Positions 14,329 through 51,533 of a stretch of DNA of 52,246 nt are shown here, one piece after another (the first letter of the stretch is position 1; each line of letters starts with the position of its first letter). Location: NCBI GenBank assembly GCA_017452665.1, contig JAFTLZ010000102.1:1-52246 (forward strand), read 5' to 3'. The notes beneath the pieces were generated by a model. It saw only the letters and a program-made list of their open reading frames with translations. It made no database searches and was not told the DNA's origin. This stretch comes from Clostridia bacterium (GTDB lineage Bacteria > Bacillota > Clostridia > Oscillospirales > CAG-272). Made by a program: the position numbers and the translations under genes.

Positions 14329-14386
14329 GATCCTGACAACTTATTCCCGCGTAACAAAATCACTTTGTGACGAAGAAAGGAAGAAT

Positions 14387-36197: not shown

Positions 36198-36216
36198 CAA
36201 AATCCAAAATAGCCCC

Positions 36217-36255
36217 CCCGCCAACCACTTTCGCAGTTGGCGGGTTTTCTATTTT
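36217..36255 (+). terminator. asd terminator = island hairpin copy 1
   Basis: 9-bp GC-rich stem (36217-36225 / 36236-36244) followed by TTTTCTATTTT. Confidence 0.75.
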
Positions 36256-36294
36256 GCACAAAAACAGTGCGCTGATTTTGTTGTGTTTTGCATA

Positions 36295-36323
36295 TTGACA
36301 CCATTTTACCTGTATGGTATAAT
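36295..36323 (+). promoter_or_regulatory. Cassette 1 promoter
   Basis: TTGACA (36295-36300), 17-nt spacer, TGG-TATAAT (36318-36323). Confidence 0.75.
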
Positions 36324-36434
36324 AAAATTGCAGATGGCGCGCTGGTTATCCTCTCAATTTTTACTACTACTATTATTATTGGTGAAGTTGTTGTGATATC
36401 CGGTAGCGTTATTAAGTTGTTTGAATAGGAAGGA

Positions 36435-36626
36435 ATGGCTATGAGAAAAATATATTTATTTAATTGTATTGTTTTAGCTTTCAATATTATTCTTTCTATC
36501 ATATCAATTCTTCTTTGTAAGGCGAACGTGTTTCATTATATTGCTTTGGTTGCGTTAGTTATTGCGTTGATTTGTGTTATAGTCCAAATAAAGAAAGATA
36601 AAAAAAGCCAGCAAGGAGAATCCTAA
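36435..36626 (+). CDS. Small membrane protein (63 aa)
   Basis: Two hydrophobic helices and a basic tail. AGGAAGG RBS. Its stop overlaps the next start (TAATG). Confidence 0.65.
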   Translation: MAMRKIYLFNCIVLAFNIILSIISILLCKANVFHYIALVALVIALICVIVQIKKDKKSQQGES

Positions 36627-37249
36627 TGAAATATGTTGTATATATCATTTTGTTTTTCTGTGCCGGCTTTTTGTTTTTGCCTCGAACCGGAACCACAGAG
36701 ATCCGCAATCAACCTCTTCTAATACTGATTCTTTCACTCATTCTGATCTTGATTTTGATTCGTTTCTTCAAATACGTTGTCTTAATGGCAAAAACACAAA
36801 AATTACTCAAAAAGCATAGGACTAAGCTGATAAAAATCAAGTTTTTTCCATGGACTTCGCGCTTTCACGGTCATTACAGTATTACTTTTCAACACGAAAA
36901 GCAAACGGTTCAGCTCGTTCTTCTATCCCGAAAAAAGAAATACCAGCGGTACCATTTTGAACGTATAGATCGGTTGGAATTTTACCGGGCAAACCGAGTT
37001 GTTTTCAAGAGTACCCAAAAATTGGGAGGTATCATCTCCAACCTTGTAGAAATCAATCAGGTTGGCAAACAAAGGATAAAATGGGAAGATTCTGCAGAAC
37101 TCCGCATCGTTCTTTTTGATAAGCTACCGGATCTGATAACGGATTCCGTAAAAAAAGAACCCCTTGGCGTAGGCGATCGGATATGCGCATCCGATAGTTA
37201 TGTATTGGATTGGAGCTCGTTATCCAAACATATCCATGCAGATAAATAA
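36626..37249 (+). CDS. Hypothetical protein, N-terminal TM hairpin plus basic soluble domain
   Basis: 207 aa, AAGGAG RBS, translationally coupled to the preceding ORF. Confidence 0.75.
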   Translation: MKYVVYIILFFCAGFLFLPRTGTTEIRNQPLLILILSLILILILIRFFKYVVLMAKTQKLLKKHRTKLIKIKFFPWTSRFHGHYSITFQHEKQTVQLVLLSRKKKYQRYHFERIDRLEFYRANRVVFKSTQKLGGIISNLVEINQVGKQRIKWEDSAELRIVLFDKLPDLITDSVKKEPLGVGDRICASDSYVLDWSSLSKHIHADK

Positions 37250-37294
37250 CAATTTCTACTCAATAAAATCTAAATTTGAAAGGCGGTGTTTTAT

Positions 37295-37831
37295 ATGAAG
37301 AACGCAATGGTACTAATTCTGTTTTTGTCGTTGTGCTTGTTTGGCTCATGTGCTACAGGAGGATATAATTTGAGCAGTGAAGTATCTTCGCCTGATAAAA
37401 AACTAACGGATTTAGCATCTAAAACATATGATGATTCAACGCTGTTGGATATTGTAAATTTTGATGGCTCAAGCGATGAGTTGAACGTTTTATATCCGAT
37501 TGAATGTGTAAGAAAACTTGATGATATTTATCGAGTATCATATCTTGGCGAAGATAGTGTTGCGGTTCTTTTATTTGACAATTCAGGCAATAAATTGTCC
37601 GGAACAATCTACGACAATCAAAAGTCAAAATCAGACTTTGCTGAATTGGAAAAAGGACAGTCTCTACAAAAAGTAAGAGAGCTTGATCCAAACGGAGCAT
37701 ATATATTCCTTTACACCGGAAGTGTTGATACTCCCAAAATCTCTTCGCACTACACGAATGACGGTTATTTAATTACCATCGAATACGACGCTTCAAATAT
37801 AATCACAAGCATATGTGAAGAACTGATTTGA
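37295..37831 (+). CDS. Hypothetical lipoprotein
   Basis: Signal peptide MKNAMVLILFLSLCLFGSC with lipobox, 178 aa. Confidence 0.75.
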   Translation: MKNAMVLILFLSLCLFGSCATGGYNLSSEVSSPDKKLTDLASKTYDDSTLLDIVNFDGSSDELNVLYPIECVRKLDDIYRVSYLGEDSVAVLLFDNSGNKLSGTIYDNQKSKSDFAELEKGQSLQKVRELDPNGAYIFLYTGSVDTPKISSHYTNDGYLITIEYDASNIITSICEELI

Positions 37832-37853
37832 TTTATGAATCGGCATCAAATGT

Positions 37854-37885
37854 CTCCCGCCAACCACTTCCGTGGTTGGCGGGAG
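37854..37885. repeat. Island hairpin copy (14-bp stem, loop TTCC)
   Basis: CTCCCGCCAACCAC (37854-37867) pairs with GTGGTTGGCGGGAG (37872-37885). No T-run follows. Confidence 0.85.
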
Positions 37886-37925
37886 CAGACTGTAGACAAA
37901 ACAACCGGCTTTCGTCAGTTTGAAG

Positions 37926-38088
37926 AAAAGTTTTGGTCGAGCTTTTTCAAAAGCTCGCGCAGTGGAGGGCGCGGAGCCATCCTCGCCCTTCGCAGAGGGC
38001 GAAATAGCCTCTTTATGGCGCTTTTCTTTTTGCCAAGCTTTTTCTTTTGCGCCTTCTTGGTCAAAAGAAAAAGCGGCACTAACAAATT
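37926..38088 (+). ncRNA. Structured multi-hairpin repeat element, copy A (function unknown; ncRNA or MITE/REP-like)
   Basis: Hairpins at 37938-37957, 37984-38001 and 38037-38074 (12-bp stem). A homologous inverted copy lies at 47948-48097, with compensatory changes in two stems. Confidence 0.5.
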
Positions 38089-38122
38089 TGTGCAATATTA
38101 CAAATTGAATACCTTTGGTCTA

Positions 38123-38168
38123 CAACCAGCTCCCGCCAACCACAGAAGTGGTTGGCGGGAGCTGGTTG
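38123..38168. repeat. Island hairpin copy (perfect 21-bp stem, loop AGAA)
   Basis: CAACCAGCTCCCGCCAACCAC (38123-38143) pairs with GTGGTTGGCGGGAGCTGGTTG (38148-38168). Confidence 0.9.
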
Positions 38169-38226
38169 CATCGTATAAAGTAAAAAACGAATCGGTAAGA
38201 CCATAAATGAAGTCGTCACGGTGCTC

Positions 38227-38255
38227 TTGACAGTTTTTTTGAATTATGGTATAAT
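38227..38255 (+). promoter_or_regulatory. Cassette 2 promoter
   Basis: TTGACA (38227-38232), 17-nt spacer, TGG-TATAAT (38250-38255). Confidence 0.7.
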
Positions 38256-38313
38256 ACAGATGTATATGTGTCAATACCTACAGATCAGACAAACGGTTCG
38301 GGAGGTGATTTCT

Positions 38314-38892
38314 ATGCGAAAAACTTATGCAAATTTGCTTCGTGTTAAGGTTGCCAAAGGATTGCTTCGCGGCCTCGTTTGGTTTGCGGTAATTCAAATT
38401 GTAATTCTTGCTGTATATGCTTTGGAATCTCATTCAAATGCTCCCATCAGCATAACCGATTTAAAAAGTGCCACTATTACAGTTGATCAAATCGGAAAAG
38501 ATGTCCGTTTTGTTGGTGGATCTAGAATTTATGTTGTTTCCGATTCTGTAAAGTATACTTTTTCTAAGTCAGAGACACTCGACAACGGGCAATATACCAA
38601 AGATGAGTTGCAAAAAGCGATTTCCGTTGGTGATGAGTTGTCAATACGATATAAGGAAGAGGACAGCTTTTTTACGGGCAGTGTGAATTATATTTACGAT
38701 GCTACGATGGGTGATAAACAACTGCGTTCTATTGAAACACATAATCAAGAGTTGATCAATATGCATAGTTTGGCAACTGTTTGTTTTGTGGTTGTAGAAA
38801 TTATCTTTTCTCTAACCCTTATTGTTTGTGCTTGCCTTTATATCTCTTTTAACTGGAAGGGAATGAAGCTTTTTCAAAAGCGCAAGCACTAA
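38314..38892 (+). CDS. Hypothetical membrane protein (N- and C-terminal TM helices)
   Basis: 192 aa. GGGAGGTG RBS 7 nt before the ATG at 38314. Confidence 0.75.
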   Translation: MRKTYANLLRVKVAKGLLRGLVWFAVIQIVILAVYALESHSNAPISITDLKSATITVDQIGKDVRFVGGSRIYVVSDSVKYTFSKSETLDNGQYTKDELQKAISVGDELSIRYKEEDSFFTGSVNYIYDATMGDKQLRSIETHNQELINMHSLATVCFVVVEIIFSLTLIVCACLYISFNWKGMKLFQKRKH

Positions 38893-38898
38893 CCTCTT

Positions 38899-39017
38899 CC
38901 GCCAACCACTTTTGCAGTTGGCGGGTTTTCTGTTTTGCACAAAAACGGCGCGCTGATTTTGTTGTATTTTGCATATTGACGTCATTTTACATGTATGGTA
39001 TAATAAAATTACAAATG
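38899..39017 (+). repeat. Hairpin + promoter module, copy 2
   Basis: CCGCCAAC...GTTGGCGG, TTTTCTGTTTTGCACAAAAA..., TTGACG-N17-TGGTATAAT (38976-39004). Confidence 0.9.
38976..39004 (+). promoter_or_regulatory. Cassette 3 promoter
   Basis: TTGACG, 17-nt spacer, TGG-TATAAT. Confidence 0.7.
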
Positions 39018-39086
39018 ACACCATCGGTATTTGGTGCACAGATACGGTTACAATTTTAAAACAGATAGCCAAAGGAGGGATTAAGT

Positions 39087-39734
39087 ATGAAACGTATCAA
39101 ACCGATTTTATTCTGTATAGGAATTGTTCTGTTGGTGTGCTGTATTTTATGGATAGCTCTTCGCGCATATGGATGTTCTTTAACAACATATATTACTGAT
39201 CTTGAAAAGTATGCTGGAGAAGAATATGCTTTTTGTATAGTATTTCCGAGAAAAATACCGGAAACTGCAGTTGAAAAAAACTTTTCTTATCATCAATATA
39301 TCGACGAAAGAGATATCTATCTGGAATTGGTTTTTCAAAATGTTGCAGATATGGAGCAATATCTTGCGGATTTAAAAGCGAACGGCGATGGTATTGCCTC
39401 AATAACTTTGCAAAATCCTTATGACACAGACTATACTGATTTGCTTTTTGCAGAAGGAGGTACATTGACGCAAAATGGTTCCGTTTTTTATGAGTACGAG
39501 ATTGAGCAGATAGAAAACTATTCTTTAAAGATTAGCGGAAGTTATTCTGCCATTAGTTATTCTTATGAAACTTTAACGGTGATTTCTGCTCATTTTGATG
39601 GTCAGAGATTTGTAAAGGAGTTTTCTTCGGAAAGAGTTCCTGCATATTTGAAAAGATTTTCTGTCGATCTGAATACACCTATTGAATATCGGGTTGATTT
39701 CCCCACGGAAAATTCTGATTTGACGACAGAATGA
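39087..39734 (+). CDS. Hypothetical membrane-anchored protein
   Basis: 215 aa with an N-terminal TM anchor. AAAGGAGG RBS. Confidence 0.8.
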   Translation: MKRIKPILFCIGIVLLVCCILWIALRAYGCSLTTYITDLEKYAGEEYAFCIVFPRKIPETAVEKNFSYHQYIDERDIYLELVFQNVADMEQYLADLKANGDGIASITLQNPYDTDYTDLLFAEGGTLTQNGSVFYEYEIEQIENYSLKISGSYSAISYSYETLTVISAHFDGQRFVKEFSSERVPAYLKRFSVDLNTPIEYRVDFPTENSDLTTE

Positions 39735-39798
39735 ATAAGCGAATCGGTTAATATGATCGCAGTTGAGCAGGGTACAGCATATATATGGAGGCAATAAA

Positions 39799-40221
39799 AT
39801 GAAATACAAAAAGAGTATTCTGGTTCTCTATCTCATTTCCGCTTTGAAGCTGATTATGACATTTATCTATTTTTTCGGTTTCACATCTGATTTTTATTAT
39901 TTAACAATTATCTCTATTCCCATGTGTATAGCGAATATGTTTAACGAAAAAATAGCATTGCTTTGTGTCGTAATTTTAGCGGTTACTTTGTTGATATGGC
40001 TTGTTGCGGTTGTACTTTCGATATTTGGAATTAAATTTCAAAGGGCTCGAATCGGTTCTGTATTTATGTTTGCTTTGGCTACAGTAATTGATTTTGGATC
40101 TGTATTTTTATCTGATAATTGGGTTCTAAAAATCGTTTGTAGCATAATATCAGCATTTGTACTGCTGATATCAATCAAAGCACTTTGCGATATTAACAAA
40201 AATTGTAGATATCCAAAATAA
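39799..40221 (+). CDS. Hypothetical polytopic membrane protein
   Basis: 140 aa with about 4 TM helices. GGAGG RBS 7 nt before the ATG at 39799. Confidence 0.75.
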   Translation: MKYKKSILVLYLISALKLIMTFIYFFGFTSDFYYLTIISIPMCIANMFNEKIALLCVVILAVTLLIWLVAVVLSIFGIKFQRARIGSVFMFALATVIDFGSVFLSDNWVLKIVCSIISAFVLLISIKALCDINKNCRYPK

Positions 40222-40256
40222 TCCTTTATAATAGTCAGATTTTAGAGGCTTTATCC

Positions 40257-40370
40257 CCCGCCAACCGCGAAAACGGTTGGCGGGCTTTCTGTTTTGCACA
40301 AAAGAGCCATATATATTTTGTCTTATTTTATATATTGACACTCTTTCTGTTGTATGATATAATAAAACAT
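40257..40370 (+). repeat. Hairpin + promoter module, copy 3 (diverged)
   Basis: CCCGCCAACCG-N6-CGGTTGGCGGG, CTTTCTGTTTTGCACAAAA..., TTGACA-N17-TGATATAAT (40335-40363). Confidence 0.85.
40335..40363 (+). promoter_or_regulatory. Cassette 4 promoter
   Basis: TTGACA (40335-40340), 17-nt spacer, TGA-TATAAT (40358-40363). Confidence 0.7.
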
Positions 40371-40422
40371 ATAGGAGCCCCGTTCTTGCCATTCGATTTT
40401 ATGATAAGCGGCAAAAGGAGTG

Positions 40423-40827
40423 ATGACTTTGTTTGAATTTAACCGATCTCAAATCGAAGGTTTAAAGCGTTATATTTATCATAGCGATATTCACGATTCG
40501 AAAATTGATGCTTGGAATTATGATAGAGAGAAAAGAATTCTTAATATCAAAACGGTTAATCCGATTTTTGGTACTCAAATGAACCTAACTTTTAAGGAAG
40601 TTATCATTTTTCTCTCCATTAGCGGCAATGAAATCGGAGCCCGCGAAACAATCCTCAGTTTAACAGTTGAAGAAGATTATTCGTATTTCCAAAATTGCAC
40701 ACAAGTATGCGGCGAATGTTTCGGTGATTCTTTGTATCTTCTTTTTCAAATGTTTTCCGGAGACGAATTGCATATTGTTTCTAAAAGCGTAGTTATCTTT
40801 ACGACACAACTTATTCCACGCGCGTGA
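40423..40827 (+). CDS. Hypothetical small soluble protein
   Basis: About 134 aa. AAAGGAG RBS. The start is ambiguous (GTG 40420, ATG 40423 or TTG 40429). Confidence 0.7.
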   Translation: MTLFEFNRSQIEGLKRYIYHSDIHDSKIDAWNYDREKRILNIKTVNPIFGTQMNLTFKEVIIFLSISGNEIGARETILSLTVEEDYSYFQNCTQVCGECFGDSLYLLFQMFSGDELHIVSKSVVIFTTQLIPRA

Positions 40828-41507
40828 TGGAAGAAAAACACCAAAATTGTTCCGGTACGTTTTTCAACGAAGCGATTTGGGATATCAATGACTATTTATC
40901 AAAAAGCACTGTCATGTTGGGGGATAATATCAAAATGCTGAATCAATTTTTTACACGAATCGAGCGCAAAATGCTCCTCTCAAGGCTAAAAGCATTGCTG
41001 GCATGGCTGTTTCTCATCGGTGCTTATGTTTTCTTTTTTCTGTACGATTGGCGAAGGGGAATTTTTTTCCTGTTCCTTCTTCCAATGCTTGTGGCAATTT
41101 ATAGGACTGATAATTGGTATTTTCCGGCGGAAGATTATTTTCGGAAGTATGCATTCAAGCATTCCAAAGAAGAACGGTGGAATTTATCCGAAAAATGTTC
41201 ATTGAAAGGGAGATATCTATATATCGGGCAAGCGATTTTTTTGGAGGATTTTGTTTTGTTAGAGGAATTCGGCGTTGTTTTGTATTATAGCGAAATCCGC
41301 GAAATCACCTACAAAACCATGAAAACCAGATTAAACGATACCCGATATCGGTTGATCTTCCGTTTAAAAAAAGCACCTCGAAAATACGCTTGTGATATCT
41401 ATAACAGTGAAAAACTTTTTGTAGGTCGTGATTGTAAATATCGACAAGCATGCGAATTGTTGAGGCAAAAAAATAAAAATCAAACTCCTAATGAAAGGCA
41501 AATATGA
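40827..41507 (+). CDS. Hypothetical protein, TM hairpin plus soluble domain
   Basis: 226 aa. The start overlaps the upstream stop (GTGATG). Confidence 0.75.
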   Translation: MEEKHQNCSGTFFNEAIWDINDYLSKSTVMLGDNIKMLNQFFTRIERKMLLSRLKALLAWLFLIGAYVFFFLYDWRRGIFFLFLLPMLVAIYRTDNWYFPAEDYFRKYAFKHSKEERWNLSEKCSLKGRYLYIGQAIFLEDFVLLEEFGVVLYYSEIREITYKTMKTRLNDTRYRLIFRLKKAPRKYACDIYNSEKLFVGRDCKYRQACELLRQKNKNQTPNERQI

Positions 41508-41878
41508 TGGATTTATTAGTTTGTTTGAACGAGCATGTCATTACAACTGTTGGCCGGTCGGATGAGGATAAATGTGTGATTATAGAAGCCATCGTTGACA
41601 ATCCGGAAGAGCTTGTAGAGCAGGTCATAAAAAATGATTGTTATATTTCTCAAATTATTTGGTGGGATAGAGCGTTGCGCTCAAAAGGATCATCTATAGG
41701 TATGGGAGGCCCTCTTGATCCGCGAGATCCTGACAATTATTATTTTGCAGAATTGTATATTTGTGATACATTTGGCCCGGAAACAACGGCTGATGAATAT
41801 GTTGAATATCTGAATAGGATAAAAAAGAAATATCCTATGTGTGATTTGTATCCGGATTTTAATATTTATAGAAAATAA
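41504..41878 (+). CDS. Hypothetical small acidic soluble protein
   Basis: 124 aa. The start overlaps the upstream stop (ATGATG). Confidence 0.75.
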   Translation: MMDLLVCLNEHVITTVGRSDEDKCVIIEAIVDNPEELVEQVIKNDCYISQIIWWDRALRSKGSSIGMGGPLDPRDPDNYYFAELYICDTFGPETTADEYVEYLNRIKKKYPMCDLYPDFNIYRK

Positions 41879-41934
41879 TCATGCGATTTGCCCAAGGCAA
41901 AAAATCCTCCCCAAAATGCTGAAAGGAGCGAAAG

Positions 41935-42402
41935 ATGAGCAACATGATCCATGGAACCGTTTATTACACGACAAGGCCCCCGCTTGGTGATTTTGATAGT
42001 GATTGGACACGATACTGTCTGGATAACGAATTTGCAATTCATTTTTTAAGCTTACATCATAATATATCAACGGGTAAGGGGACTATTGTATTCGAGTTGG
42101 CCGATTCCTTTGTGGCACACTGTTGTGAGAATTTTATGGATATTGTCCTCTATACGGTTGATGGACACCCCATATTAGATCCAATCCATAAAGATTTGGG
42201 CAAATTAAAGGGCTTGGTTCAAAAAATATTCGATTTCAAATCTGTGGAAATGGTTGAATTGAGGTTTTCGTTTGGCGAAGTCATAGAGGAAGACTATGAA
42301 ATTTGTAAGACGAATCTTGATGGAATGACGAACGTTATTTTATCAAAATACTTGGAGGAAGCCACACAAGTTCCTACCATAAAAGTAATGATCGAAAAAT
42401 AA
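41935..42402 (+). CDS. Hypothetical soluble protein
   Basis: 155 aa, GAAAGGAG RBS. Confidence 0.75.
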   Translation: MSNMIHGTVYYTTRPPLGDFDSDWTRYCLDNEFAIHFLSLHHNISTGKGTIVFELADSFVAHCCENFMDIVLYTVDGHPILDPIHKDLGKLKGLVQKIFDFKSVEMVELRFSFGEVIEEDYEICKTNLDGMTNVILSKYLEEATQVPTIKVMIEK

Positions 42403-42426
42403 AGAACCGCTTGGAGGTGTGACCAC

Positions 42427-42906
42427 TTGGATATCTGGCTCATAGAAAAATGGCAAGATTATTATAAAGATCATCCTTGCCGAAGCGGCTTGCGAGTATA
42501 TTATGATAAAAATGTGGATCCTGAAGTAAAGCGCGCCATTAAGGAGTGCGTTGCATGGCTTCGTCGCGAATATGTTTTTCCTAAAAGAGTACGAATGTAT
42601 GTAAAATCCAATCGACGCATCAAAGCAAAAAACGGCGATATGGTGTGCGGTACTTTTTTCAGACCCACTGATAGAGATGTGGAACCGTATATTCGAATTG
42701 CCACAGGAGACTATTTGGAACTTTTCGAACAAAGGGGAAAGGACAATGCTTTAGCAGCTATCTTGCAAGCAATGATGCATGAACTCTCCCATTATTTTCA
42801 GTGGTTGAACGATTTGGATTTAACCTTCATCGGTGAAGAACGTCAGGCAACAAACTATTCGCGTCGGTTGATGAGTCTCTATGCAGAAACCAGAGATCAT
42901 CCGTAA
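42427..42906 (+). CDS. Hypothetical protein with HExxH motif
   Basis: 159 aa. TTG start 7 nt after GGAGGTG. MMHELSHYFQW is a possible zincin-like metal site. Confidence 0.7.
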   Translation: MDIWLIEKWQDYYKDHPCRSGLRVYYDKNVDPEVKRAIKECVAWLRREYVFPKRVRMYVKSNRRIKAKNGDMVCGTFFRPTDRDVEPYIRIATGDYLELFEQRGKDNALAAILQAMMHELSHYFQWLNDLDLTFIGEERQATNYSRRLMSLYAETRDHP

Positions 42907-42968
42907 ATTTTTGCTTTCACTATTGCAGGTATATCCATTTGTTTTCATTTTTTGAGGAGGAGTCATTC

Positions 42969-43208
42969 ATGGATAAAATTAAATTTTACAAAATACTAAA
43001 AGAAAACGGCATAGATACGAACAAAGTTTGTTTTGATGATGCTTTTGAAGATGATGTTTTTTGTGTTTACTCCTACCATGGTTTTTGGGATGTTTTTTAT
43101 CGAGAACGCGGAAAAACTTATAATCTAAAAACTTTTTCAAGTGAGTCTGCGGCACTACTCGATTTATTAAAACGATTGTTACCGACCATTCCCCCAAACT
43201 CCCCCTAA
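42969..43208 (+). CDS. Hypothetical small protein (79 aa)
   Basis: GAGGAGGAG RBS 6 nt before the ATG at 42969. Confidence 0.7.
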   Translation: MDKIKFYKILKENGIDTNKVCFDDAFEDDVFCVYSYHGFWDVFYRERGKTYNLKTFSSESAALLDLLKRLLPTIPPNSP

Positions 43209-43244
43209 TAAAACTGTCCGTACTTTAATGATTGGAGAATCGCA

Positions 43245-43538
43245 ATGTATATAAATGTTCTATATGAAGGTGATTATTGTGATTGTGATATTATATTTGT
43301 TCCTGATTCTATTGGAGATAAGATTGAACAATATGCGCAACAATTTTGTGATTGGCTAAATACTCCTTACGTTTCGAATGATTATTATGTGACCATAAAT
43401 GGCAAGGAATACCTGAGTTTAGAAACCGACGGATTTGTTCGTTGGCTCAATCATTATATTTGCAAAGATCAATGCTTGGCGCATATAGTAAAACAGCACA
43501 CAAATTTAGTTCCTTCGTACAAGGTGATAGAATTTTAA
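43245..43538 (+). CDS. Hypothetical small protein (97 aa)
   Basis: GGAG RBS. Cys- and Tyr-rich soluble protein. Confidence 0.7.
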   Translation: MYINVLYEGDYCDCDIIFVPDSIGDKIEQYAQQFCDWLNTPYVSNDYYVTINGKEYLSLETDGFVRWLNHYICKDQCLAHIVKQHTNLVPSYKVIEF

Positions 43539-43581
43539 GGGTTGTTTTCTTTCTATCCTAATCCGAAAAGGAGTAACCATT

Positions 43582-44310
43582 ATGAAAACTATTCAAAGAT
43601 GTGTTTGTGTATTGATAATTCTATCCGCGATGTTTCTTTCGTCTTCTTGCAAAAATTATTATTCGGGCGATGAGTATCATATGCTTGGTTCATACATTCC
43701 GGGATTTCCAACAACAGATGTGAGAGATTCAATACATGAAGTCCTTGAAACTGACGAATACGGAAGAGTGTTATTTTCTTTCTCCTTCAGTTATAACTGT
43801 CTGTACGGTAAAGAAATGTTGGCATATGCTGTTTTGCAGGATTTAGATGGTGATTTCATTTATTTTTATGAAGATGTGTTTTATACCGTTTCTAAAACTC
43901 CCGATCTTGAATTGTTGAAACAAATAAATGATTGGGGTGAAGAATTAAATCAATCACAGCTTGCAAAACGTCCGATTCGCGGTTATTTTCACTATAATAT
44001 CAAAAAAACATTGCTTGAATTTGATCGCCGATCCGATCGGAAAAGAATTGTTCAAGAAATAGAGCAAGCGCTTCCTTCCAAAGGCGTTCACTTAACTGAC
44101 ATATGCCAGATCTGTGATTATGATTTATCCGAGTTGCAACTGGAGCTATGCGGGATTGAAGAGGAAGATGGGGAAATCGTATATTATTTCATTCTTATAA
44201 ATTCAAGCGGCGTTGTAGATTTTATGAGAATCGAAGATATTTATGATTATCAAGAAGATCTGATTGCCTTCAAGACGAAAAACGGTTGGAATTATCCTAC
44301 CGGAAACTGA
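43582..44310 (+). CDS. Hypothetical lipoprotein
   Basis: Signal peptide with lipobox (MFLSSSC), 242 aa, AAAGGAG RBS. Confidence 0.8.
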   Translation: MKTIQRCVCVLIILSAMFLSSSCKNYYSGDEYHMLGSYIPGFPTTDVRDSIHEVLETDEYGRVLFSFSFSYNCLYGKEMLAYAVLQDLDGDFIYFYEDVFYTVSKTPDLELLKQINDWGEELNQSQLAKRPIRGYFHYNIKKTLLEFDRRSDRKRIVQEIEQALPSKGVHLTDICQICDYDLSELQLELCGIEEEDGEIVYYFILINSSGVVDFMRIEDIYDYQEDLIAFKTKNGWNYPTGN

Positions 44311-44342
44311 AAAATTGTATAGGAGGTTATGCAATAAACAGT

Positions 44343-44759
44343 ATGAGTTTTGTTGAATATATTTTGGTATATACTCTCTGGCTTCTCCTGATGGTGTTTA
44401 TTACACGTGGCATCATTTTCTATGTAATTAGCTATCAACTGAGTAGAAAAGCATATGTCAAACGAAAGCGAAAACAGTCTTTTCTTCAATGGTTGACGTA
44501 TGCTCTTTTTAAAGAACAAATTCCTAAGTTTTTGATTTTTTGGTATTTTGGTCATTTTGCGTTTTATATTGTTGAAATCTTGCTTCTTAGTATTTTAACA
44601 TTTTTTAAAATGCCATATGATGCTGCAAAAATCTTGTTGGGAATCAATTTCTATGTATACGGTGGCGCCCCGTGTTTGATACTGGGTTTTATTCTTTTTG
44701 ATTTTAAAGATCGGGGAAAGGTTCATGTGGAAAGGCTGATTAAAAAGAAGAAAAAATGA
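44343..44759 (+). CDS. Hypothetical polytopic membrane protein
   Basis: 138 aa with about 4 TM helices and a KKKKK tail. The start is uncertain (TTG 44286 or ATG 44343). Confidence 0.7.
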   Translation: MSFVEYILVYTLWLLLMVFITRGIIFYVISYQLSRKAYVKRKRKQSFLQWLTYALFKEQIPKFLIFWYFGHFAFYIVEILLLSILTFFKMPYDAAKILLGINFYVYGGAPCLILGFILFDFKDRGKVHVERLIKKKKK

Positions 44760-44775
44760 TTATAAATCAATTTTC

Positions 44776-44812
44776 CCCGCCAACTGCGAAAGTGGTTGGC
44801 GGGTTTCTAATT
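44776..44812 (+). terminator. Terminal island hairpin (loop inverted relative to copy 1)
   Basis: CCCGCCAAC (44776-44784), TGCGAAAGTG, GTTGGCGGG (44795-44803), followed by TTTCTAATTTT. The loop is the exact reverse complement of the copy 1 loop CACTTTCGCA. Confidence 0.75.
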
Positions 44813-47850: not shown

Positions 47851-47947
47851 GGTTTCAAAAAGACAGGGAGCCTTTCAGATTACTACATAGAATACTGATA
47901 AATTTTATTTCAAAAGCAACAGTTTATTAAATTAACAAAATCTGCTA

Positions 47948-48097
47948 GCCGCTTTTTCTTTTGACGATGTAGGCGCAAAAGAAAAAGCTTGGTAAAAAGA
48001 AAAACGCCGTAAAGGAATTTCGCGCTCTGCGGAGCGCGACAAGGGCGCCGTGCCCTTGACCTCGCCGCCTTTTGAAAAAAGGCGGGCGAAAACTTTT
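47948..48097 (-). ncRNA. Structured multi-hairpin repeat element, copy B (inverted relative to copy A)
   Basis: The reverse complement aligns with 37926-38088. It has the same 12-bp stem GCTTTTTCTTTT/AAAAGAAAAAGC (47951-47988). The other stems are changed in a compensatory way. Confidence 0.5.
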
Positions 48098-48176
48098 ACT
48101 GTTTTTGAAAGTACTAACTCCTTTGTTAGTGAGCTGAGCGGGGAGCCTTTCAGCTCCCCACAAAAATTGTTTGTGC

Positions 48177-48572
48177 TTAAATCAACCCGTAGCGATCCGT
48201 AATGTGCGTCGCCGTAGCGGGCAGCTCCACCTGAATGGAAGCCAGCGCGTCGGAGTAGAGCGAAAAATATTTGTCGCTCATGCGCTCGTTTTCATCTATC
48301 ACCAGCATCGCGGCAAGATAATAGACCGCTGCCGGCGCAAAGATCCCGCAAAGCGGAAATGCTTCACCCAGGTCAATCGCAGCGCCTTCAAACGCTTCCA
48401 CAGCATCCAATCCGTGTGCCAATCTGTATCTCGCATCCAGCGGCGCACATTGCGTCAAACAGGAGGCAAGCAGATAGGGCGCACGCTCGGTATAGTCTTC
48501 CAAATTCTGCGGCAGTGATGGATCCTCACAAACCAAACGCACCGCCGCATCCAAAAGCTCCTGACAGGTCAT
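48177..48572 (-). CDS. Phage protein of unknown function (position suggests head completion/connector)
   Basis: 131 aa, GGAGG RBS, immediately downstream of the capsid gene. Confidence 0.6.
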   Translation of the reverse strand: MTCQELLDAAVRLVCEDPSLPQNLEDYTERAPYLLASCLTQCAPLDARYRLAHGLDAVEAFEGAAIDLGEAFPLCGIFAPAAVYYLAAMLVIDENERMSDKYFSLYSDALASIQVELPATATHITDRYGLI

Positions 48573-48586
48573 TTGTTACCTCCGCA

Positions 48587-49426
48587 TCAAACCGCGTCCG
48601 CGATGTTCAGATCCAAAAGTACCATTTCGGAGGGGTAAACCACCTTCGCACCGTAAAGATGCAAGCCCTTTACCGCATCTGCAAAGCGCAGCTCGGGACG
48701 ATATGCGTCAATCTCGGAGAGCTGCTCCGCAAATGCGATGGCGCGCTTGGTGCGTGCCAGGCACTTGTGCTTGTAGCCGGTGTCGCTTTCGGCTTTGACG
48801 ATGTTGTTGGAAACGTAAATTTTGCAACCGCCGATCGAGCCGATGCAACCGTTTTCCAGCGCGTCACCGTTGTCGCTTGCCAAATTGACCTTCGCCTTCA
48901 GAATCATGCCGGCAATGTCGGGAGAAACCTCGATCACAATGTCCTGCGGATCGGAAACGTTGTTGGTAAAGAGTTTGGTACGCGCATCGATCAGCAGATC
49001 AATAATGTTGTCCACCGTCGTATCCTCGGCAGAAATTTTCACTCCTGCATCGTTGTAAAGATTGTAGATGTAACGGTCTGCGTCGTTTGCCAACGCATTT
49101 GCGGCGTTGCGCATCGCAGCCTCCATCAGCTTCGGGGAAGCCTGCGCACGGTCGATATCGTCGATCTGGAAGTTAAAGTACTTCGCCTGATCAATTACCA
49201 AATCGCGCACGTTGTCGGAGAGGCTGGAGGGAGAACTCATATTGGAATTTTTTGTGTACTCCGAAACGGTCACGGCATTGATGCCGCAAATGCGTACAGT
49301 GTTGCCTTTCTCGCGGATCTCGCCCTCAAAATCGCGGTTGCAGTTGGATACCGCAATGTACTGCTTGTTCAGCTCCTGATACAGATTTTCGCTCCATACA
49401 GTGGGAATAAAGTTTGTAATAGCCAT
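48587..49426 (-). CDS. Phage major capsid protein (P22-coat-like family)
   Basis: The N-terminus MAITNFIPTVWSENLYQEL...NRDFEGEI..KGNTVRI matches my memory of P22 coat-like capsid proteins. It follows the scaffold gene. Confidence 0.75.
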   Translation of the reverse strand: MAITNFIPTVWSENLYQELNKQYIAVSNCNRDFEGEIREKGNTVRICGINAVTVSEYTKNSNMSSPSSLSDNVRDLVIDQAKYFNFQIDDIDRAQASPKLMEAAMRNAANALANDADRYIYNLYNDAGVKISAEDTTVDNIIDLLIDARTKLFTNNVSDPQDIVIEVSPDIAGMILKAKVNLASDNGDALENGCIGSIGGCKIYVSNNIVKAESDTGYKHKCLARTKRAIAFAEQLSEIDAYRPELRFADAVKGLHLYGAKVVYPSEMVLLDLNIADAV

Positions 49427-49483
49427 AATTTTTATCCTTTCTTTTTTAAAAAATATAAAATAATTCTTGTTCTTATTCTAAAA

Positions 49484-50074
49484 TCAGCGCCATTTTTGCA
49501 TAGATCGCATGATTTTTGGCAGATTTGCCCGTACTTCGGTCGCGGACATTGCGCGTACCTCGTCAGGCGAAAATTCTTCGGCTTCCTGTGCTTTCAGTGC
49601 ACCTGCCGAGCGGTTTCGGTTTTCTTCGTTCCGTTGCATTGCCATCTCCTGTGCACAAACCCTGCGCCGTTCCGCCAATGCATAAGCGGCAGCAAGAGAG
49701 GTGCCGCGGGTCTGTACCTCTTCCCAAATGGATGCGGGAAGTGTCGCCACGGGAATCTCGGGATACAGCTTGTAAAACTCCTCGTATTCGCTTTCAATGC
49801 GGCTGAGCACCGCACTTTGCCCCGCAAGCTTTTCCTGCAGGCGCGCTATTTCGGTTCGCAGGTCGGCAAGCTCGTCCTCGTCAGCTTTTGAAACAGCGGG
49901 CTCAGAATCAGGATTAGGATCTGCACCGGAATTTTCAAAAATTGCATCGCCGACAGTCTCTTCCATTGCAGCATCTGCCGATCCTGCTCCTGTCTCTGCG
50001 CTTTGAGAATCCGCACAGCTCCGCGTTGCATCCTCCGAATCCGAATTTTCGATAACAGTTTGATTTTCATTCAT
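49484..50074 (-). CDS. Phage scaffolding protein
   Basis: 196 aa with an acidic, low-complexity N-terminus and a helical coiled-coil region. It lies between the portal and capsid genes. AAAGGAG RBS. Confidence 0.7.
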   Translation of the reverse strand: MNENQTVIENSDSEDATRSCADSQSAETGAGSADAAMEETVGDAIFENSGADPNPDSEPAVSKADEDELADLRTEIARLQEKLAGQSAVLSRIESEYEEFYKLYPEIPVATLPASIWEEVQTRGTSLAAAYALAERRRVCAQEMAMQRNEENRNRSAGALKAQEAEEFSPDEVRAMSATEVRANLPKIMRSMQKWR

Positions 50075-51533
50075 TTTCTGACGCTCCTTTCACAAAAATT
50101 TTTTGGATCATTGCATCCCGGTCGATCAATACCCCGTCGGGTAGCAGCTCCAGATATTGGCGGACATCCAAATGCCCCTTGTCCAACAGCTTGTCCAGCA
50201 CCGTTACGGTTGCCGACGGCGTGTAGCTGCTGAGGCCGTTTACCTGTGCAGTTGCCCGCAAAAGCTCCTTTTTCATCAGCGCAAAATCGGTCTCCTGCGC
50301 GCTCTGCGTGCCGTCTGCATCCAGCGTCACAAGTAGACGCTCGGCAGGGTAGTAGGTGCAAATCATATCCGCCCAAATATCGGCAAGCTCACCGATACAG
50401 CGTTGAAAATTCGCACGCACGTGTGCCAGAGCCAGCTGTGAGGCTTCCTGCAAAGCAAGAATGGCACTTGTGTTGTTCGCTTCCGCGTCGCCAAGAGCTG
50501 CGTCGGTCGCGTTCATCATGCTCTTGGTGTTTTCAATGATGTGCGTGATCAGGTCCAGGTATCCGTCCTGCATCTTGCCCACACCCACCACCGATACCGC
50601 ATCCGCCACGTTTCCGCCGCCCATCGCAGCAATCGCCTCGCCCACCTCATTCGACCAATCCGGGATACGGGATTTGTCATAAACGACCTTGGAGAACGCC
50701 GTGTCGCTCATGTGCTTCATAGCCAATGCATACGCAGAATTGATATACTTTTGGTTTGCAATCATATCGCTGATGGGCGCGCTGCCGTGAAAGCTGTTTT
50801 TGCAATCGTGCCAATGAAAGTAGGCAACAGGGTAGTGGTGCAAGCCCGTGTGTACGCGGCGGATCAGGCAGTAGCGCGTGGACTTTTCAAATACCACCTC
50901 GCCGTTTTCACGGAAAAAGCGGATCAGATAGGTCGTTTTCTCCGCGTTGTTCAGTTCGCATTTTGCAAGATCTCCCGCTTGTAGCTCGGCTTCGCCATCT
51001 CCCGTAATGCGCAAGACGTCGCGCTCGCTTACCCCCGCCTCCAAGGCCTCATGGCGCAGAGATGATACGGTCGCGCGTCCGGAGAGCAGAACGTATTCCT
51101 GTGATTGCAGATCCGAGCAGTTGACGTCCGAAACAAACAGATTGGTACTGTCAATGCGATCGGTGCGGATGTCACCCGTGTAGAGCTGACCATCCGTGTG
51201 GTCGGGATCCCACCAGCAGTAAAATACACCGTCTCCCGAGATTGCCGCATCTAACAGAGCACCGTAGGAGAGTACCTCCATCCGACCCTGTTGCCAACGC
51301 CACAGCGCATTCTTGTTCAAAACCTCGATCCCCTGTAAAATCCGTTCCCGCGCGTCAGGCTCGCGGATAAAGGGGAGCGCGTCGTCCGAGTAGCGGACCG
51401 TAAGATTTTCCGACATCACGCCGGCTACCAGATAATCGGTAATTCTTCGTACCAGGTTAAAAACGGGGCGGGGCAGATCGGTACAAATCCCGTGCCACTG
51501 ATCGCCGCGGTAAAATCTCTCGTTGCGCCGCAC
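50067..51533 (-). CDS. Phage portal protein (true start probably further upstream, near 51620)
   Basis: Portal-typical N-terminal NERFYRGDQW motif, about 490 aa, gene order. The frame stays open upstream to an AAAGGAGG at 51622-51629 (see finding). Confidence 0.8.
   Translation of the reverse strand: MRRNERFYRGDQWHGICTDLPRPVFNLVRRITDYLVAGVMSENLTVRYSDDALPFIREPDARERILQGIEVLNKNALWRWQQGRMEVLSYGALLDAAISGDGVFYCWWDPDHTDGQLYTGDIRTDRIDSTNLFVSDVNCSDLQSQEYVLLSGRATVSSLRHEALEAGVSERDVLRITGDGEAELQAGDLAKCELNNAEKTTYLIRFFRENGEVVFEKSTRYCLIRRVHTGLHHYPVAYFHWHDCKNSFHGSAPISDMIANQKYINSAYALAMKHMSDTAFSKVVYDKSRIPDWSNEVGEAIAAMGGGNVADAVSVVGVGKMQDGYLDLITHIIENTKSMMNATDAALGDAEANNTSAILALQEASQLALAHVRANFQRCIGELADIWADMICTYYPAERLLVTLDADGTQSAQETDFALMKKELLRATAQVNGLSSYTPSATVTVLDKLLDKGHLDVRQYLELLPDGVLIDRDAMIQKIFVKGASENE

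Follow-up and report, generated by a model that had tools for sequence, protein, structure and literature searches.

A mobile MITE-like repeat family of gut Clostridia with a covarying core and a predicted pseudoknot-clamped triple helix

The window analysed here, 52,246 nt of the Clostridia bacterium contig JAFTLZ010000102.1 (assembly GCA_017452665.1), contains two copies, A and B, of a family of non-coding, MITE-like repeats that reach high copy number in uncultured gut Clostridia. We observed that all helices of the family's core covary and that the runs on three of its strands track one another. Our overall reading, to which we give a probability of about 0.55, is that this is a mobile family with a pseudoknot-clamped triplex fold, that it is mobilised through an IS1182-family element, and that the fold serves as an RNA 3′ module.

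Copies A and B have a 160-nt core in common with a mean identity of 77% (pairwise alignment of 37,880–38,130 on the + strand with 47,930–48,130 on the − strand). Repeat finding resolved this core into two inverted arms (38,011–38,077/47,948–48,014, 91% identity; 37,926–38,005/48,017–48,096, 71% identity), which upholds the inverted repeat described in a first-pass annotation of this DNA. The pairwise alignment contains a 3-nt indel between the copies. Folding of the T-rich strand against shuffled sequences gave z-scores of −5.5 for copy A and −4.3 for copy B.

Copy A is a complete MITE-like element of 244 nt (37,886–38,129, + strand) with leader, core, trailer and both terminal repeats. Its extent was set by whole-length homologues: L030, L009, L075, L062 and L043 match it end to end, and similarity stops outside the element. 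The left terminal inverted repeat (CAGACTGTAGACAAAAC; 37,886–37,902, + strand) could be aligned to either end of full-length IS1182-family elements (L123, L124, L009), and the right one (CCTTTGGTCTACAACCAG; 38,112–38,129, + strand) was likewise identified by alignment with IS1182 ends. Two complete 32-nt copies of an island hairpin abut these ends exactly. The left copy (CTCCCGCCAACCAC-TTCC-GTGGTTGGCGGGAG; 37,854–37,885, + strand) is a terminator-like hairpin of the upstream gene at 37,295–37,831; the right copy (38,130–38,161, + strand) was located by repeat finding. The same hairpin without an insert occurs at 36,215, 38,896, 40,255 and 44,774.

Copy B belongs to another subfamily and spans ~262 nt (47,879–48,140, − strand; core 48,098–47,948) between two copies of a 13-nt direct repeat, CTGAAAGGCTCCC. 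The upstream repeat (48,141–48,153, − strand) lies inside the complete terminator hairpin GGGGAGCTGAAAGGCTCCCC (48,159–48,140) of the gene at 48,572–48,177, and the downstream repeat (47,866–47,878, − strand) is followed by the T-tract of the original terminator. TGTAGAC ends were not found in copy B. The copy does sit at a junction between chromosome and prophage, as had been suggested, with a phage-like portal/capsid cluster on one side and chromosomal dehydrogenase genes on the other. This adjacency looks incidental: among 2.9 million viral contigs the family is all but missing, the stem pattern of hairpin H4 (described below) giving one match, unrelated. Copy A had no BLAST match among 50,697 phage and 72,556 plasmid records. 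With nothing in the phage and plasmid searches and one unrelated viral contig, we dropped a phage attachment site or phage-borne small RNA as candidates. We also set aside a 10-kb transposon or invertible segment with A and B as its terminal inverted repeats, since ends and flanking duplication are separate for each copy.

A genome scan with the 12-bp H4 stem pattern gave at least 116 stretches, in which nhmmer found about 120 full-length copies. Among the matches listed, the carriers are almost all gut Clostridia MAGs with several copies per genome (no more than 13 per assembly within the fetched pieces), and the copies are intergenic and often at contig ends. A contig end lay within 200 nt for 48 of 87 copies on short contigs. 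Spacers between convergent genes were occupied more often than those between divergent genes (23 vs 10); in tandem-gene spacers, 15 copies were co-oriented and 15 anti-oriented with the genes (rough ORF calls). Units were often arranged as tail-to-tail pairs. Clustering of every ORF of 100 aa or more from 117 loci showed no protein family recurring beside the element, and the largest recurrent cluster covered 7 of the 117. The Rfam search that the first-pass annotation had recommended identified no family: Rfam 15 gave no match at gathering score in the whole window or in L001, and its matches at E ≤ 10 were miRNA-type hairpin noise.

The T-rich strand of the 155–165-nt core is predicted to fold into three GC-rich hairpins, H1–H3, followed by an H-type pseudoknot. 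On the + strand of copy A, H1 (CGAGCTTTT-TC-AAAAGCTCG; 37,938–37,957) is 96% paired across the family, with 5 of its 9 pairs changing on both sides. H2 (GGAGGGC-GCGGA-GCCATCC, one mismatch; 37,964–37,982) changes on both sides at all 7 pairs. H3 (37,983–38,002), defined by the family alignment and RNAalifold, is an 8-bp stem with a CGCA tetraloop, and its variants in the family include CCCT/AGGG, GCGCT/AGCGC, CCGCG/CGCGG and CCCGT/ACGGG. Sequence and folding place the same hairpins of copy B within 48,020–48,088 on the − strand (H1, 48,088–48,063; H2, 48,058–48,040; H3, 48,039–48,020).

Three stems had been named previously, and all were recovered in place: H1 (37,938–37,957 vs 48,088–48,063), H3 (as 37,984–38,001 vs 48,038–48,021) and the 12-bp H4, which is identical in both copies (38,037–38,048/38,063–38,074 vs 47,988–47,977/47,962–47,951). 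The compensatory changes claimed for these stems are present, but the claim had missed a fourth hairpin, H2, which also covaries (37,964–37,982 vs 48,058–48,040). The TCGCAG/CCGCAG difference is not a loop difference as had been proposed; in the 8-bp H3 it is a change in one more pair, U-G vs C-G.

H1–H3 covary strongly across 55 aligned cores. In these cores, 96% of helix cells were paired, compared to 83% in shuffles and 41–61% in controls with slid partners. Double-change cells numbered 271, compared to 82 in shuffles and 35–56 in slid controls, and the covariation score was 0.336 (shuffles, 0.114; slid controls, at most 0.097). The shuffle control ignores relatedness, whereas the slid-partner controls keep it. 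RNAalifold independently predicted H1–H4, and stem variants were mixed and matched within one genome with pairing kept. The family alignment also contained 62 non-wobble mismatched cells. G·U exceeded A·C overall (45 vs 21), but not clearly once one ambiguous pseudoknot column was set aside (28 vs 21); by this count the hairpins give no clear sign of RNA or of either strand.

The 14-nt loop of H4 had been described as a plain loop, but its first five bases pair with an upstream GGCGC. On the + strand of copy A, strand a (GGCGC, 38,017–38,021) and strand e (GCGCC, 38,049–38,053) are 94% paired across the family, and 4 of the 5 pairs change on both sides. A perfect 4-bp a/e helix was present in 41 of 55 distinct a/e combinations, compared to 31% ± 5% in shuffles, and at least 10 different paired 4-mers occur in the family. 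In the predicted fold, GGCGC:GCGCC would be stem 1 of the pseudoknot and the 12-bp H4 would be stem 2, with the 5′ arm (GCTTTTTCTTTT; 38,037–38,048, + strand) as the Watson-Crick pyrimidine strand and the 3′ arm (AAAAGAAAAAGC; 38,063–38,074, + strand) as the purine strand of a triplex. Between the stems lies T-run 1 (TTTTCTTTTT; 38,022–38,031, + strand), the predicted Hoogsteen third strand, which is a parallel image of 38,063–38,072. The corresponding module of copy B occupies 47,951–48,008 on the − strand (a, 48,008–48,004; third strand, 48,003–47,994; Watson-Crick arm, 47,988–47,977; e, 47,976–47,972; purine arm, 47,962–47,951). The pseudoknot, the triple helix and the high-copy mobile family had all escaped the first-pass annotation.

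Among 139 asymmetric cases, T-run 1 contained the exact image of the purine arm in parallel sense in 121 and in antiparallel sense in 8. At least seven independent run variants (AAAGAAAAA, AAAGAAAA, AAAGAAAAAA, AAAAAGAAAA, AAAGAAAAAAA, AAGAGAAAAA and GAAAAGAAAGAGAA) each have a matching third strand. In L116, A-to-G change in the purine arm goes together with T-to-C change in both pyrimidine runs. The genome scan required exact H4 arms, so the invariance of H4 in the sample is partly by construction, and the variant runs come from additional copies within the same fetched stretches. Judged from sequence alone, T-run 1 tracks the purine arm as a Hoogsteen third strand would (U·A-U, C+·G-C). The run starts directly after stem 1. 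From the helical junction onwards it would therefore follow the major groove of H4 in parallel with the purine arm, forming ~10 base triples (nine U·A-U, or T·A-T, and one C+·G-C). Mirror repeats are made by no copying mechanism that we know of, and for this reason mirror-image runs would need selection. The fold would be a class IV pyrimidine-motif intrastrand triplex in the terms of Hoyne and Holder. Across the family it would comprise 9–14 layers, and in the L110 variant the third strand is joined by a 3-nt linker only. The same module recurs with different bodies in Bacteroidota contexts (L001/L053 and L007); in L007 it lies 180 nt after a gene, on that gene's strand.

Terminal repeats and hairpin duplications connect one subfamily to IS1182. 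The ends of the copy A subfamily (CAGACTGTAGACAAAAC/CTGGTTGTAGACCAAAGG) were compared with the IS ends (CAGACTGTAGACCAAAAG; L123, L124, L009): the MITE and IS1182-family ends have TGTAGAC.AAA in common, and TGTAGAC..AA is invariant in 13 ends. L123:894–2,390 and L124:244–1,746 scored 434 bits on NF033551, IS1182 transposase (cutoff 270). L009:1–445 is the start of an IS1182-type IS, and that contig also carries a MITE copy at ~4,441–4,685. Direct duplications of 13–34 bp that comprise a hairpin abut the ends in L009, L030, L075, L062, L026, L066 and copy A. The earlier suggestion that copy A had inserted at a hairpin and duplicated it thus holds, and six further loci behave alike with locus-specific hairpins; in L075 and L062, two loci of a single MAG, the duplicated hairpins differ. 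Most terminator-insertion sites lie between convergent genes. Copy A also meets the criteria of a MITE (244 nt, no transposase gene, a non-coding indel pattern, about 120 full copies).

IS1272, of the IS1182 family, has been reported to target terminator hairpins (PMC4923244), and a cruciform model drawn in this literature has a pathway in which the entire stem-loop is duplicated after attack at its 5′ feet (PMC5678879, Fig. 13, pathway b). We read the copy A subfamily as a MITE that is mobilised in trans into terminator hairpins, presumably by an IS1182-family DDE transposase. The transposase would act on a terminator hairpin or cruciform at its two feet, joining the element's ends there, and repair would then duplicate the whole hairpin. 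Exact-protein look-ups of flanking genes recovered no empty sites; they led either to contigs broken within copy A or to an arrangement like that of copy B. IS1182 ends occur in only one subfamily; copy B and most other subfamilies lack both such ends and an evident duplication. Plant transposon ENEs suggested, by analogy, that the core might be the 3′ UTR of an IS1182 transposase mRNA, which we rejected: neither core nor triplex module is present in the full IS copies L123–L125 or in 77 further IS1182 relatives, and the partial core copies in L124 and L138 are merely adjacent to the IS. With the core absent from full IS copies, its origin is unexplained.

Known IS1182-family MITEs, studied for IS1272, are likewise short, non-coding and multi-copy, have terminal inverted repeats that match a co-resident IS, and use terminator hairpins without primary-sequence specificity. 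IS1272 and TnSha1, however, delete part or all of the target stem-loop without duplication (PMC4923244, PMC5678879), whereas the copy A family duplicates the whole stem-loop, an outcome for which the IS1272 papers offer no more than a hypothetical pathway. The copy A family also differs from IS1182 MITEs in conserving an internal structured core, which the IS lacks, and not its ends. REP/BIME/REPIN, ERIC, RUP, BOX and Correia repeats are also high-copy, intergenic and structure-conserving, prefer gene 3′ ends and form inverted pairs, but none has a pseudoknot or triplex. REPs are single 20–40-nt palindromes tied to RAYT Y1 transposases without target duplication, and ERIC and Correia are one long imperfect palindrome. 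The REP/REPIN criterion (a single 20–40-nt GC-rich palindrome with 5′ GTAG, no duplication of the target and one RAYT gene per genome) was not met by our family, in which the unit is 240–260 nt with four helices and hairpin-length duplications.

Potential intrastrand triplex (PIT) repeats were reportedly described by Hoyne & Maher in 2000. PIT, BoxC and TMECO repeats of E. coli and other bacteria are likewise dispersed, intergenic and built of three successive blocks of a single strand that could form a triplex (Holder et al. 2015, PMC4666352), a criterion that the family meets. The TMECO triplex is rich in G/C, follows the purine motif (class II), has 3–6-nt loops and cannot form in RNA (PMC4666352); our family would form an A/T-rich pyrimidine-motif class IV triplex that is RNA-compatible, with a 14-nt second loop in a pseudoknot, within a larger multi-hairpin element, and its triplex is backed by three-way covariation. 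Copies A and B do not meet the TMECO pattern CCCTCNCCC-N3-6-GGGNGAGGG-N3-GGGNGAGGG.

Long major-groove triplexes are known to stabilise RNA in herpesviruses, in vertebrate lncRNAs and in the transposon RNAs of plants and fungi. The MALAT1, MEN-β and PAN ENEs have the same order of a Hoogsteen U-rich strand, a Watson-Crick U-rich strand and an encoded A-rich 3′ strand, with ~10 major-groove U·A-U triples broken by C+·G-C, as predicted here; the ENE-like RNAs of plant and fungal transposons place the module on a transposable element, as in this family. The ENE strand criterion is met, with two U-rich strands and one A-rich strand and the Hoogsteen strand parallel to the purine strand (121/139). 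A U-rich internal loop flanked by ENE stems was not found in the family. Unlike the ENE, the host is bacterial, a pseudoknot stem rather than ENE stems holds the third strand, the A-rich strand is not shown to be an RNA 3′ end, and transcription and stabilisation are without evidence. Telomerase RNA P2b-P3 and the SAM-II, SAM-V and preQ1-II riboswitches have the topology predicted here, in which a U-rich loop 1 follows stem 1 and occupies the deep groove of stem 2, and stem 2 stacks on stem 1 without a loop 2. Those pseudoknots have 3–6 triples, are bound by ligand or protein and stand in a fixed context, whereas this family would have 9–14, is dispersed in many copies and matches no Rfam model. 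A fixed position in the 5′ leader of one gene class was not met in 117 loci, where gene 3′ ends were preferred. The bacterial triplexes listed in a 2026 review are only short ones in riboswitches and group II introns (PMC13541005).

Could the fold be incidental to an ordinary decaying MITE, with covariation produced by subfamily relatedness and palindrome-preserving repair? Dispersed palindromic repeats often look compensatory, the shuffle control is blind to relatedness, and many copies are mismatched (the 62 cells noted above). We consider this very unlikely: the slid controls keep relatedness and yet fall far below the observed pairing and double changes, hairpin-templated repair cannot maintain pseudoknot pairing or a mirror-image third strand, stem variants recombine within one genome with pairing kept, and the module recurs with unrelated bodies in another phylum. 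A cis-regulatory RNA, either a ligand-binding pseudoknot of the SAM-II/preQ1-II type with a major-groove triplex or a riboswitch-like leader, would likewise have an H-type pseudoknot whose U-rich loop 1 occupies the major groove of stem 2 (PMC13541005). Some copies lie 40–70 nt upstream of a ribosome-binding site and start codon, which this explanation would also accommodate. It is scarcely plausible given that the SAM-II, SAM-V and preQ1-II models were unmatched even at E ≤ 10, downstream genes are unrelated to one another with no gene class shared in 117 loci, each genome has many copies, which face either way and are mostly found at gene 3′ ends, and the ribosome-binding site is outside the fold. 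That the element encodes a small basic or hydrophobic peptide has next to nothing left to recommend it. Frames do cross the copies (for example 37,835–38,206, +, and 47,945–48,163, −), 50 of the 55 cores have at least one stop-free frame, and the indel between copies A and B is 3 nt long. Against these points, 24 indels are multiples of three and 90 are not, core lengths are evenly distributed modulo 3, neither a start codon nor a ribosome-binding site is conserved, the consensus has stops in its most protein-like frame, and substitutions are paired across stems. The candidate ATGTTCGCAC box lies 21–28 nt from the core in all three phases, and the conserved leader box [ATG]TGTTCGCAC was rejected as a start codon because its phase varies. 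The first-pass inference of selection on structure and not on a peptide is therefore supported by pairing (96% vs 83% in shuffles), double changes (271 vs 82) and the non-coding indels.

Whether the fold acts in RNA or in single-stranded DNA is inferred with less support, and its function is a guess without transcript evidence. In the RNA reading, the fold would act in a transcript made by read-through or from an unrecognised promoter, and may be an exonuclease-resistant 3′ module that guards the element RNA or the upstream mRNA. The module, and not the element ends, would then be what the subfamilies conserve. No σ70-like promoter was found in or just upstream of either window copy, and no promoter or terminator inside the element; the even orientation in tandem-gene spacers is unlike an obligatory role in the upstream mRNA. 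The most specific form of the RNA reading, built on analogy, is that a transcribed core with a U·A-U/C+·G-C triplex is a bacterial counterpart of the MALAT1/ENE 3′-end cap, a portable exonuclease block scattered by small transposable elements behind terminators and used independently by phage and Bacteroidota non-coding RNAs. We put this forward tentatively and think it will more probably prove wrong than right. The fold could instead matter in single-stranded or supercoiled DNA, with hairpins, pseudoknot and a T·A-T triplex on the T-rich strand during replication, repair or transposition, or as H-DNA or a cruciform. There it might be a recognition or pausing structure for the copying machinery, or it might do no more than cause instability, which has been proposed for the intrastrand triplex repeats of E. 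coli. The unbiased orientation relative to neighbouring genes, the lack of a promoter, the similar G·U and A·C counts in the hairpins and the frequent tail-to-tail pairs fit this explanation. Both DNA and RNA form pyrimidine-motif intrastrand triplexes, the PIT/BoxC/TMECO repeats with triplex potential were described at the DNA level (PMC4666352), and the partner transposase targets DNA hairpins (PMC4923244, PMC5678879). We still regard a DNA role as unlikely, though far from negligible. An IS1182-type DDE transposase needs only terminal repeats on duplex ends, yet the core is what subfamilies conserve; for H-DNA a mirror repeat suffices, without any purine arm in cis or covariation in a pseudoknot stem; and the L007 module, downstream of a gene and in the same sense, has the look of part of a transcript.

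The family disrupts gut-metagenome assemblies and yields spurious ORFs of 100–130 aa. Its whole-hairpin duplications give sequence-level support to the cruciform-attack model of the IS1182 family, until now only a drawing. The natural variation approaches a complete compensatory-mutation experiment for a 9–14-layer triplex in a bacterial repeat family, and the predicted triple helix resembles eukaryotic RNA-end protectors and had not previously been tied to a bacterial transposable element. If the fold acts in DNA, it would be the best-supported selected intrastrand DNA triplex so far. If it acts in RNA, it would be a new means of 3′-end protection for bacteria and transposons, and a compact part for engineering transcript stability. 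Should the 3′-cap reading hold, this would be the first long bacterial RNA triple helix with a stability role and the first on a bacterial transposon.

Window positions 37926-38088 (+) aligned with 48097-47948 (−) at 77% identity in a pairwise alignment, as expected from the first-pass annotation, which had described an element present twice in inverted orientation. A repeat search of the window returned inverted arms 67 nt (91%) and 80 nt (71%) long, and nhmmer found exactly two full-length copies, copy A (37886-38129, +) and copy B (~48140-47879, −). Folding of the T-rich strand gave z = −5.5 and −4.3 against dinucleotide shuffles for the two copies; the opposite strand of both also folded well. 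The stems named in that annotation were present at their positions, but the list was incomplete: a fourth covarying hairpin (H2) had been missed, and H3 is really an 8-bp stem closed by a CGCA tetraloop.

Over 55 aligned cores, pairing of four hairpins and one extra helix reached 96%, compared to 83% in column shuffles and 41-61% with partners slid by 1-3 columns. Both-side changes were observed in 271 cells, versus 82 in shuffles and 35-56 in the slid controls. RNAalifold recovered H1-H4 independently. H2 and H3 versions were freely combined inside a single MAG with pairing retained, and additional hairpins were inserted in H1 or H2 (again in a single MAG) with the remaining fold undisturbed. 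Family indels comprised 24 multiples of three and 90 others, and core lengths were even modulo 3; the open frames across the window copies are thus artefacts, and a peptide-coding reading of them was ruled out by this pattern. With helices that covary over the 55 cores and non-coding indels, these data support the earlier proposal that structure, not a peptide, is under selection.

The extra helix pairs GGCGC, directly upstream of the first T-run, with GCGCC. The latter is the first five bases of the 14-nt H4 loop, which had been taken for a plain loop and contains a pseudoknot strand. Covariants were GGCCC/GGGCC, GGGCC/GGCCC, GGCA/TGCC, GGTG/CACC, AGCG/CGCT and CCCC/GGGG, and a perfect 4-bp helix occurred in 41/55 distinct combinations versus 31% ± 5% (maximum 49%) in 2000 shuffles. 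Because this helix crosses H4, the 3' half of the core is an H-type pseudoknot without a loop 2. We are highly confident of these structural statements, much more so than of any role in RNA or DNA.

The strand complementary to the purine arm (AAAAGAAAAA) is the H4 5' arm (TTTTTCTTTT). Loop 1 of the pseudoknot (TTTTCTTTTT) is instead the parallel image of that purine arm, reading T where the arm has A and C where it has G. Among modules with an asymmetric purine run, the first T-run contained an exact parallel image in 121/139 and the antiparallel one in 8/139. Each departure from the majority purine run was tracked by both pyrimidine strands. Purine arms and first T-runs read, respectively, AAAGAAAAA and TTTCTTTTT, AAAGAAAA and TTTCTTTT, AAAGAAAAAA and TTTCTTTTTT, AAAAAGAAAA and TTTTTCTTTT, AAAGAAAAAAA and TTTCTTTTTTT, and, in the homologous stretches L116 and L110, AAGAGAAAAA and TTCTCTTTTT, and GAAAAGAAAGAGAA and CTTTTCTTTCTCTT. 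To our knowledge, a mirror repeat is neither made nor kept by duplication or hairpin-templated repair, and the sole interaction known to us that demands one is Hoogsteen pairing, in the major groove, of a third strand made of pyrimidines. Loop 1 of an H-type pseudoknot exits stem 1 at the helical junction and follows stem 2 in its deep groove, parallel to the 3' strand of that stem; the T-run starts directly after stem 1, an exact fit to this topology. We infer from sequence, without biochemical data, that the first T-run is a putative Hoogsteen third strand forming U.A-U or T.A-T, plus C+.G-C, triplets. In the Hoyne/Holder scheme this is a predicted class IV pyrimidine-motif intrastrand triplex, the rarest intrastrand class, compatible with RNA (PMC4666352). 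The predicted fold resembles the MALAT1/telomerase type, and its strand order (Hoogsteen, Watson-Crick, purine strand) is that of MALAT1. Both window copies carry the complete module (copy A, 38017-38074, +; copy B, 47951-48008, −).

Modules were also observed outside the main family. At L001:1743-2724 and in L053 (IMG/VR contig, Bacteroidales MAG; Bacteroidales phage-like contig), the module GGG, TTTCTTTTT, GCCA, GCTTTTTCTTTT, CCC, GTTTTTC, AAAAGAAAAAGC is joined to unrelated upstream sequence and terminates a 1-kb stretch without ORFs, antisense to its neighbours. Possibly this stretch is a large non-coding RNA whose 3' end forms a triplex; Rfam gave no match for that of L001. A minimal module (CCCC, TTTTCTTTTT, GGA, GCTTTTTCTTTT, GGGG, AGGC, AAAAGAAAAAGC) lies at L007:2090-2320 in a Cyclobacteriaceae MAG, 180 nt past the stop codon of a co-oriented 688-aa gene, with a convergent gene ahead. 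A sister family without the pseudoknot (L110, Clostridia MAG RGIG9149; 1026, 1180, 4619 and 6703) has the order GC hairpin, third strand, GGT and a hairpin with a 2-4-nt loop, with variant loops of 3 nt and 4 nt. It has three distinct run sequences, each with a matching third strand, and up to 14 triplets, four of them C+.G-C. A deletion derivative at L014:4540-4610 fuses the H1 5' arm straight to H4 (AAAAGTTTTGGTCAAGCTTTTTCTTTTGCGCC...), with loss of H2, H3 and the third strand.

No Rfam model reached its gathering score for the window element, with nothing meaningful at E ≤ 10, and BLAST against phage and plasmid records gave no match; the repeat family belongs to no Rfam family, REP/REPIN or TMECO pattern. 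Scanning 185,579 species genomes for the 12-bp stem, with any loop of 8-24 nt allowed, yielded at least 116 stretches, a sample biased toward the majority run since the H4 arms were fixed. Of those listed, ~100 came from uncultured gut Clostridia, in MAGs from humans and ruminants assigned to 'Eubacteriales', Oscillospiraceae, Acutalibacteraceae, Ruminococcus and Candidatus Apopatosoma. One nhmmer iteration from copy A gave ~120 full-length copies among the stretches listed. Several MAGs held 5-13 copies, counted only within a few fetched kilobases; MAG contigs precluded true copy counts and replication-strand analysis. A contig end lay within 200 nt of 48/87 copies on short contigs among the matches listed, and all contigs carrying the gene upstream of copy A break inside copy A, the signature of a high-copy repeat. 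Copies were intergenic, lying between convergent genes in 23 cases versus divergent genes in 10; tandem spacers had both orientations equally often (15 versus 15, from rough ORF calls). No neighbouring protein family recurred among 117 loci.

Several sequences accompany the copies. In MAG JAZKYO01 (L064, L086, L097), units of two subfamilies stand tail to tail ~85 nt apart in ~500-nt composites of REPIN-like arrangement; the outer ends (AAATTGTAGTTTGTAGGGGAGTTGTTCGCAC) form inverted repeats and are accompanied by a conserved hairpin (AGGAGCTGTC..GACAGCTCCT). Downstream of many copies in Apopatosoma and Ruminococcus MAGs (L003, L024, L031, L070, L072, L112), a second conserved sequence (..ATCTTTTG.TTTGGCTGTTG..TTTATCTTGTAGGGGTCGGCGCC..), GTAG then a GC-rich palindrome, looks REP-like. 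In several subfamilies, many leaders (for example in L012, L026, L068, L079, L090 and L096) carry a conserved box, [ATG]TGTTCGCAC, at 21-28 nt before the core, often preceded by AAATTGGGATTTATCG. It was rejected as a start codon because its phase varies, and it is no obvious promoter either.

Similarity between copy A and its homologues spans 244 nt and is lost beyond that, and the ends of its subfamily are inverted repeats (CAGACTGTAGACAAAAC ... CCTTTGGTCTACAACCAG). Both ends are abutted by a complete hairpin that differs per locus (32 nt at copy A, 29 nt in L009, others in L030, L075 and L062); in other subfamilies, such hairpins flank L066 and L026, the latter with a perfect terminator of 30 nt in which the A and T tracts are included. 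The hairpins of L075 and L062, both from one MAG, differ from each other, so the hairpins are target-derived. Loop sequences show direct duplication in L009, L030, L075 and L026; the window loops differ (TTCC versus AGAA). The suggestion that copy A had inserted into an island hairpin and duplicated it is supported by the same arrangement at other loci with locus-specific hairpins. The window has six perfect 28-33-nt island hairpins (CCCGCCAACC..GGTTGGCGGG) over 36215-44806 (at 36215, 37854, 38130, 38896, 40255 and 44774). Three sit in a 132-nt repeat with a consensus TTGACA-17-TATAAT promoter (36218, 38899, 40258), and the hairpins punctuate ~14 small ORFs without a Pfam match; each gene or small group thus resembles a cassette equipped with a terminator and promoter of its own. 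Elsewhere, a 276-nt tandem duplication (95% identical; 15005-15556) lies within a 1276-aa ORF (14300-18130).

On the L009 contig, an IS starts 4 kb from the repeat copy, with an outer end (CTGTAGACAAAAAGG) adjoining another hairpin; the N-terminal 123 residues that it encodes gave a match to the model of the IS1182 transposase (E = 2.4e-35). Full copies in metagenome relatives (L123:825-2414, L124:178-1771) encode transposases scoring 434 bits against a cutoff of 270 and have perfect TIRs (CAGACTGTAGACCAAAAG) with hairpins at the IS ends. TGTAGAC.AA is common to all 13 IS and repeat ends. IS1182-family direct repeats in ISfinder are 0-60 bp. The IS1182-family elements, also found in L125 from 1110 and at L009:1-445, are ~1.59 kb at full length and carry an internal TTGAC(A/G)-N17/18-TATAAT promoter; hairpins adjoin all of the ends examined, and the L009 transposase has an in-frame stop. 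IS1272 of this family inserts in terminator hairpins without sequence specificity (PMC4923244). A cruciform model has been drawn in which the stem-loop is duplicated in full when joining occurs at the 5' feet; its authors observed deletion, not duplication (PMC5678879). Movement here is like that of an IS1182 MITE, except that the target hairpin is duplicated instead of deleted. Given the shared ends, hairpin duplications and IS1182 partner, we infer with fair confidence, well above that in any role of the fold, that copy A is a MITE moved in trans by an IS1182-type transposase. The IS copies lack the core, which was therefore acquired, not inherited from the IS.

This inference is not extended to copy B, whose mobiliser is unidentified. 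Its subfamily has the trailer GGCTAAC...CTGTNGCTTT; copy A-type ends were not found in copy B, and insertion has left no mark there other than a 13-nt direct repeat belonging to the upstream terminator. The nearby phage-like cluster (48177-52246, −) comprises, within the window, only a P22-like portal gene, a 196-aa gene, a capsid gene (PF25209) and a 131-aa gene, and ends abruptly at a terminator beside chromosomal dehydrogenase genes. The cluster could be a remnant or satellite instead of an intact prophage end.

Between subfamilies the ends vary but the core is kept, from which we infer that the core serves the element or the host. As a DDE transposase requires duplex ends only, we infer a function in a single-stranded product, for which a T-rich-strand transcript is the simplest candidate. 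By analogy with MALAT1, the PAN ENE and plant and fungal transposon ENE-like elements, a long triplex burying the purine strand would block 3'-to-5' exonucleases. The module would then act as the 3'-terminal part of a transcript, which the L007 and L001 contexts fit. This RNA role is a tentative inference by analogy, without expression or biochemical data (probability roughly 0.35-0.4). Counting against it, no promoter was found in or just upstream of either window copy, orientation was unbiased relative to genes (rough ORF calls), and G.U showed no excess over A.C, a weak test because mismatches in dispersed copies are mostly neutral decay. The main rival, which we rate somewhat below the RNA reading, places the role in single-stranded or supercoiled DNA, as has been argued for E. 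coli PIT/TMECO repeats (PMC4666352).

Triplex potential in bacterial repeats is already known, as are RNA triplexes in eukaryotic transposon RNAs. In full-text searches and a 2026 review, we found no bacterial mobile repeat described as carrying a pyrimidine-motif triplex of 9-14 layers that is clamped by a pseudoknot and supported by covariation. The element should be of high interest to specialists in RNA structure and in transposons, and the readings given here can be tested directly.
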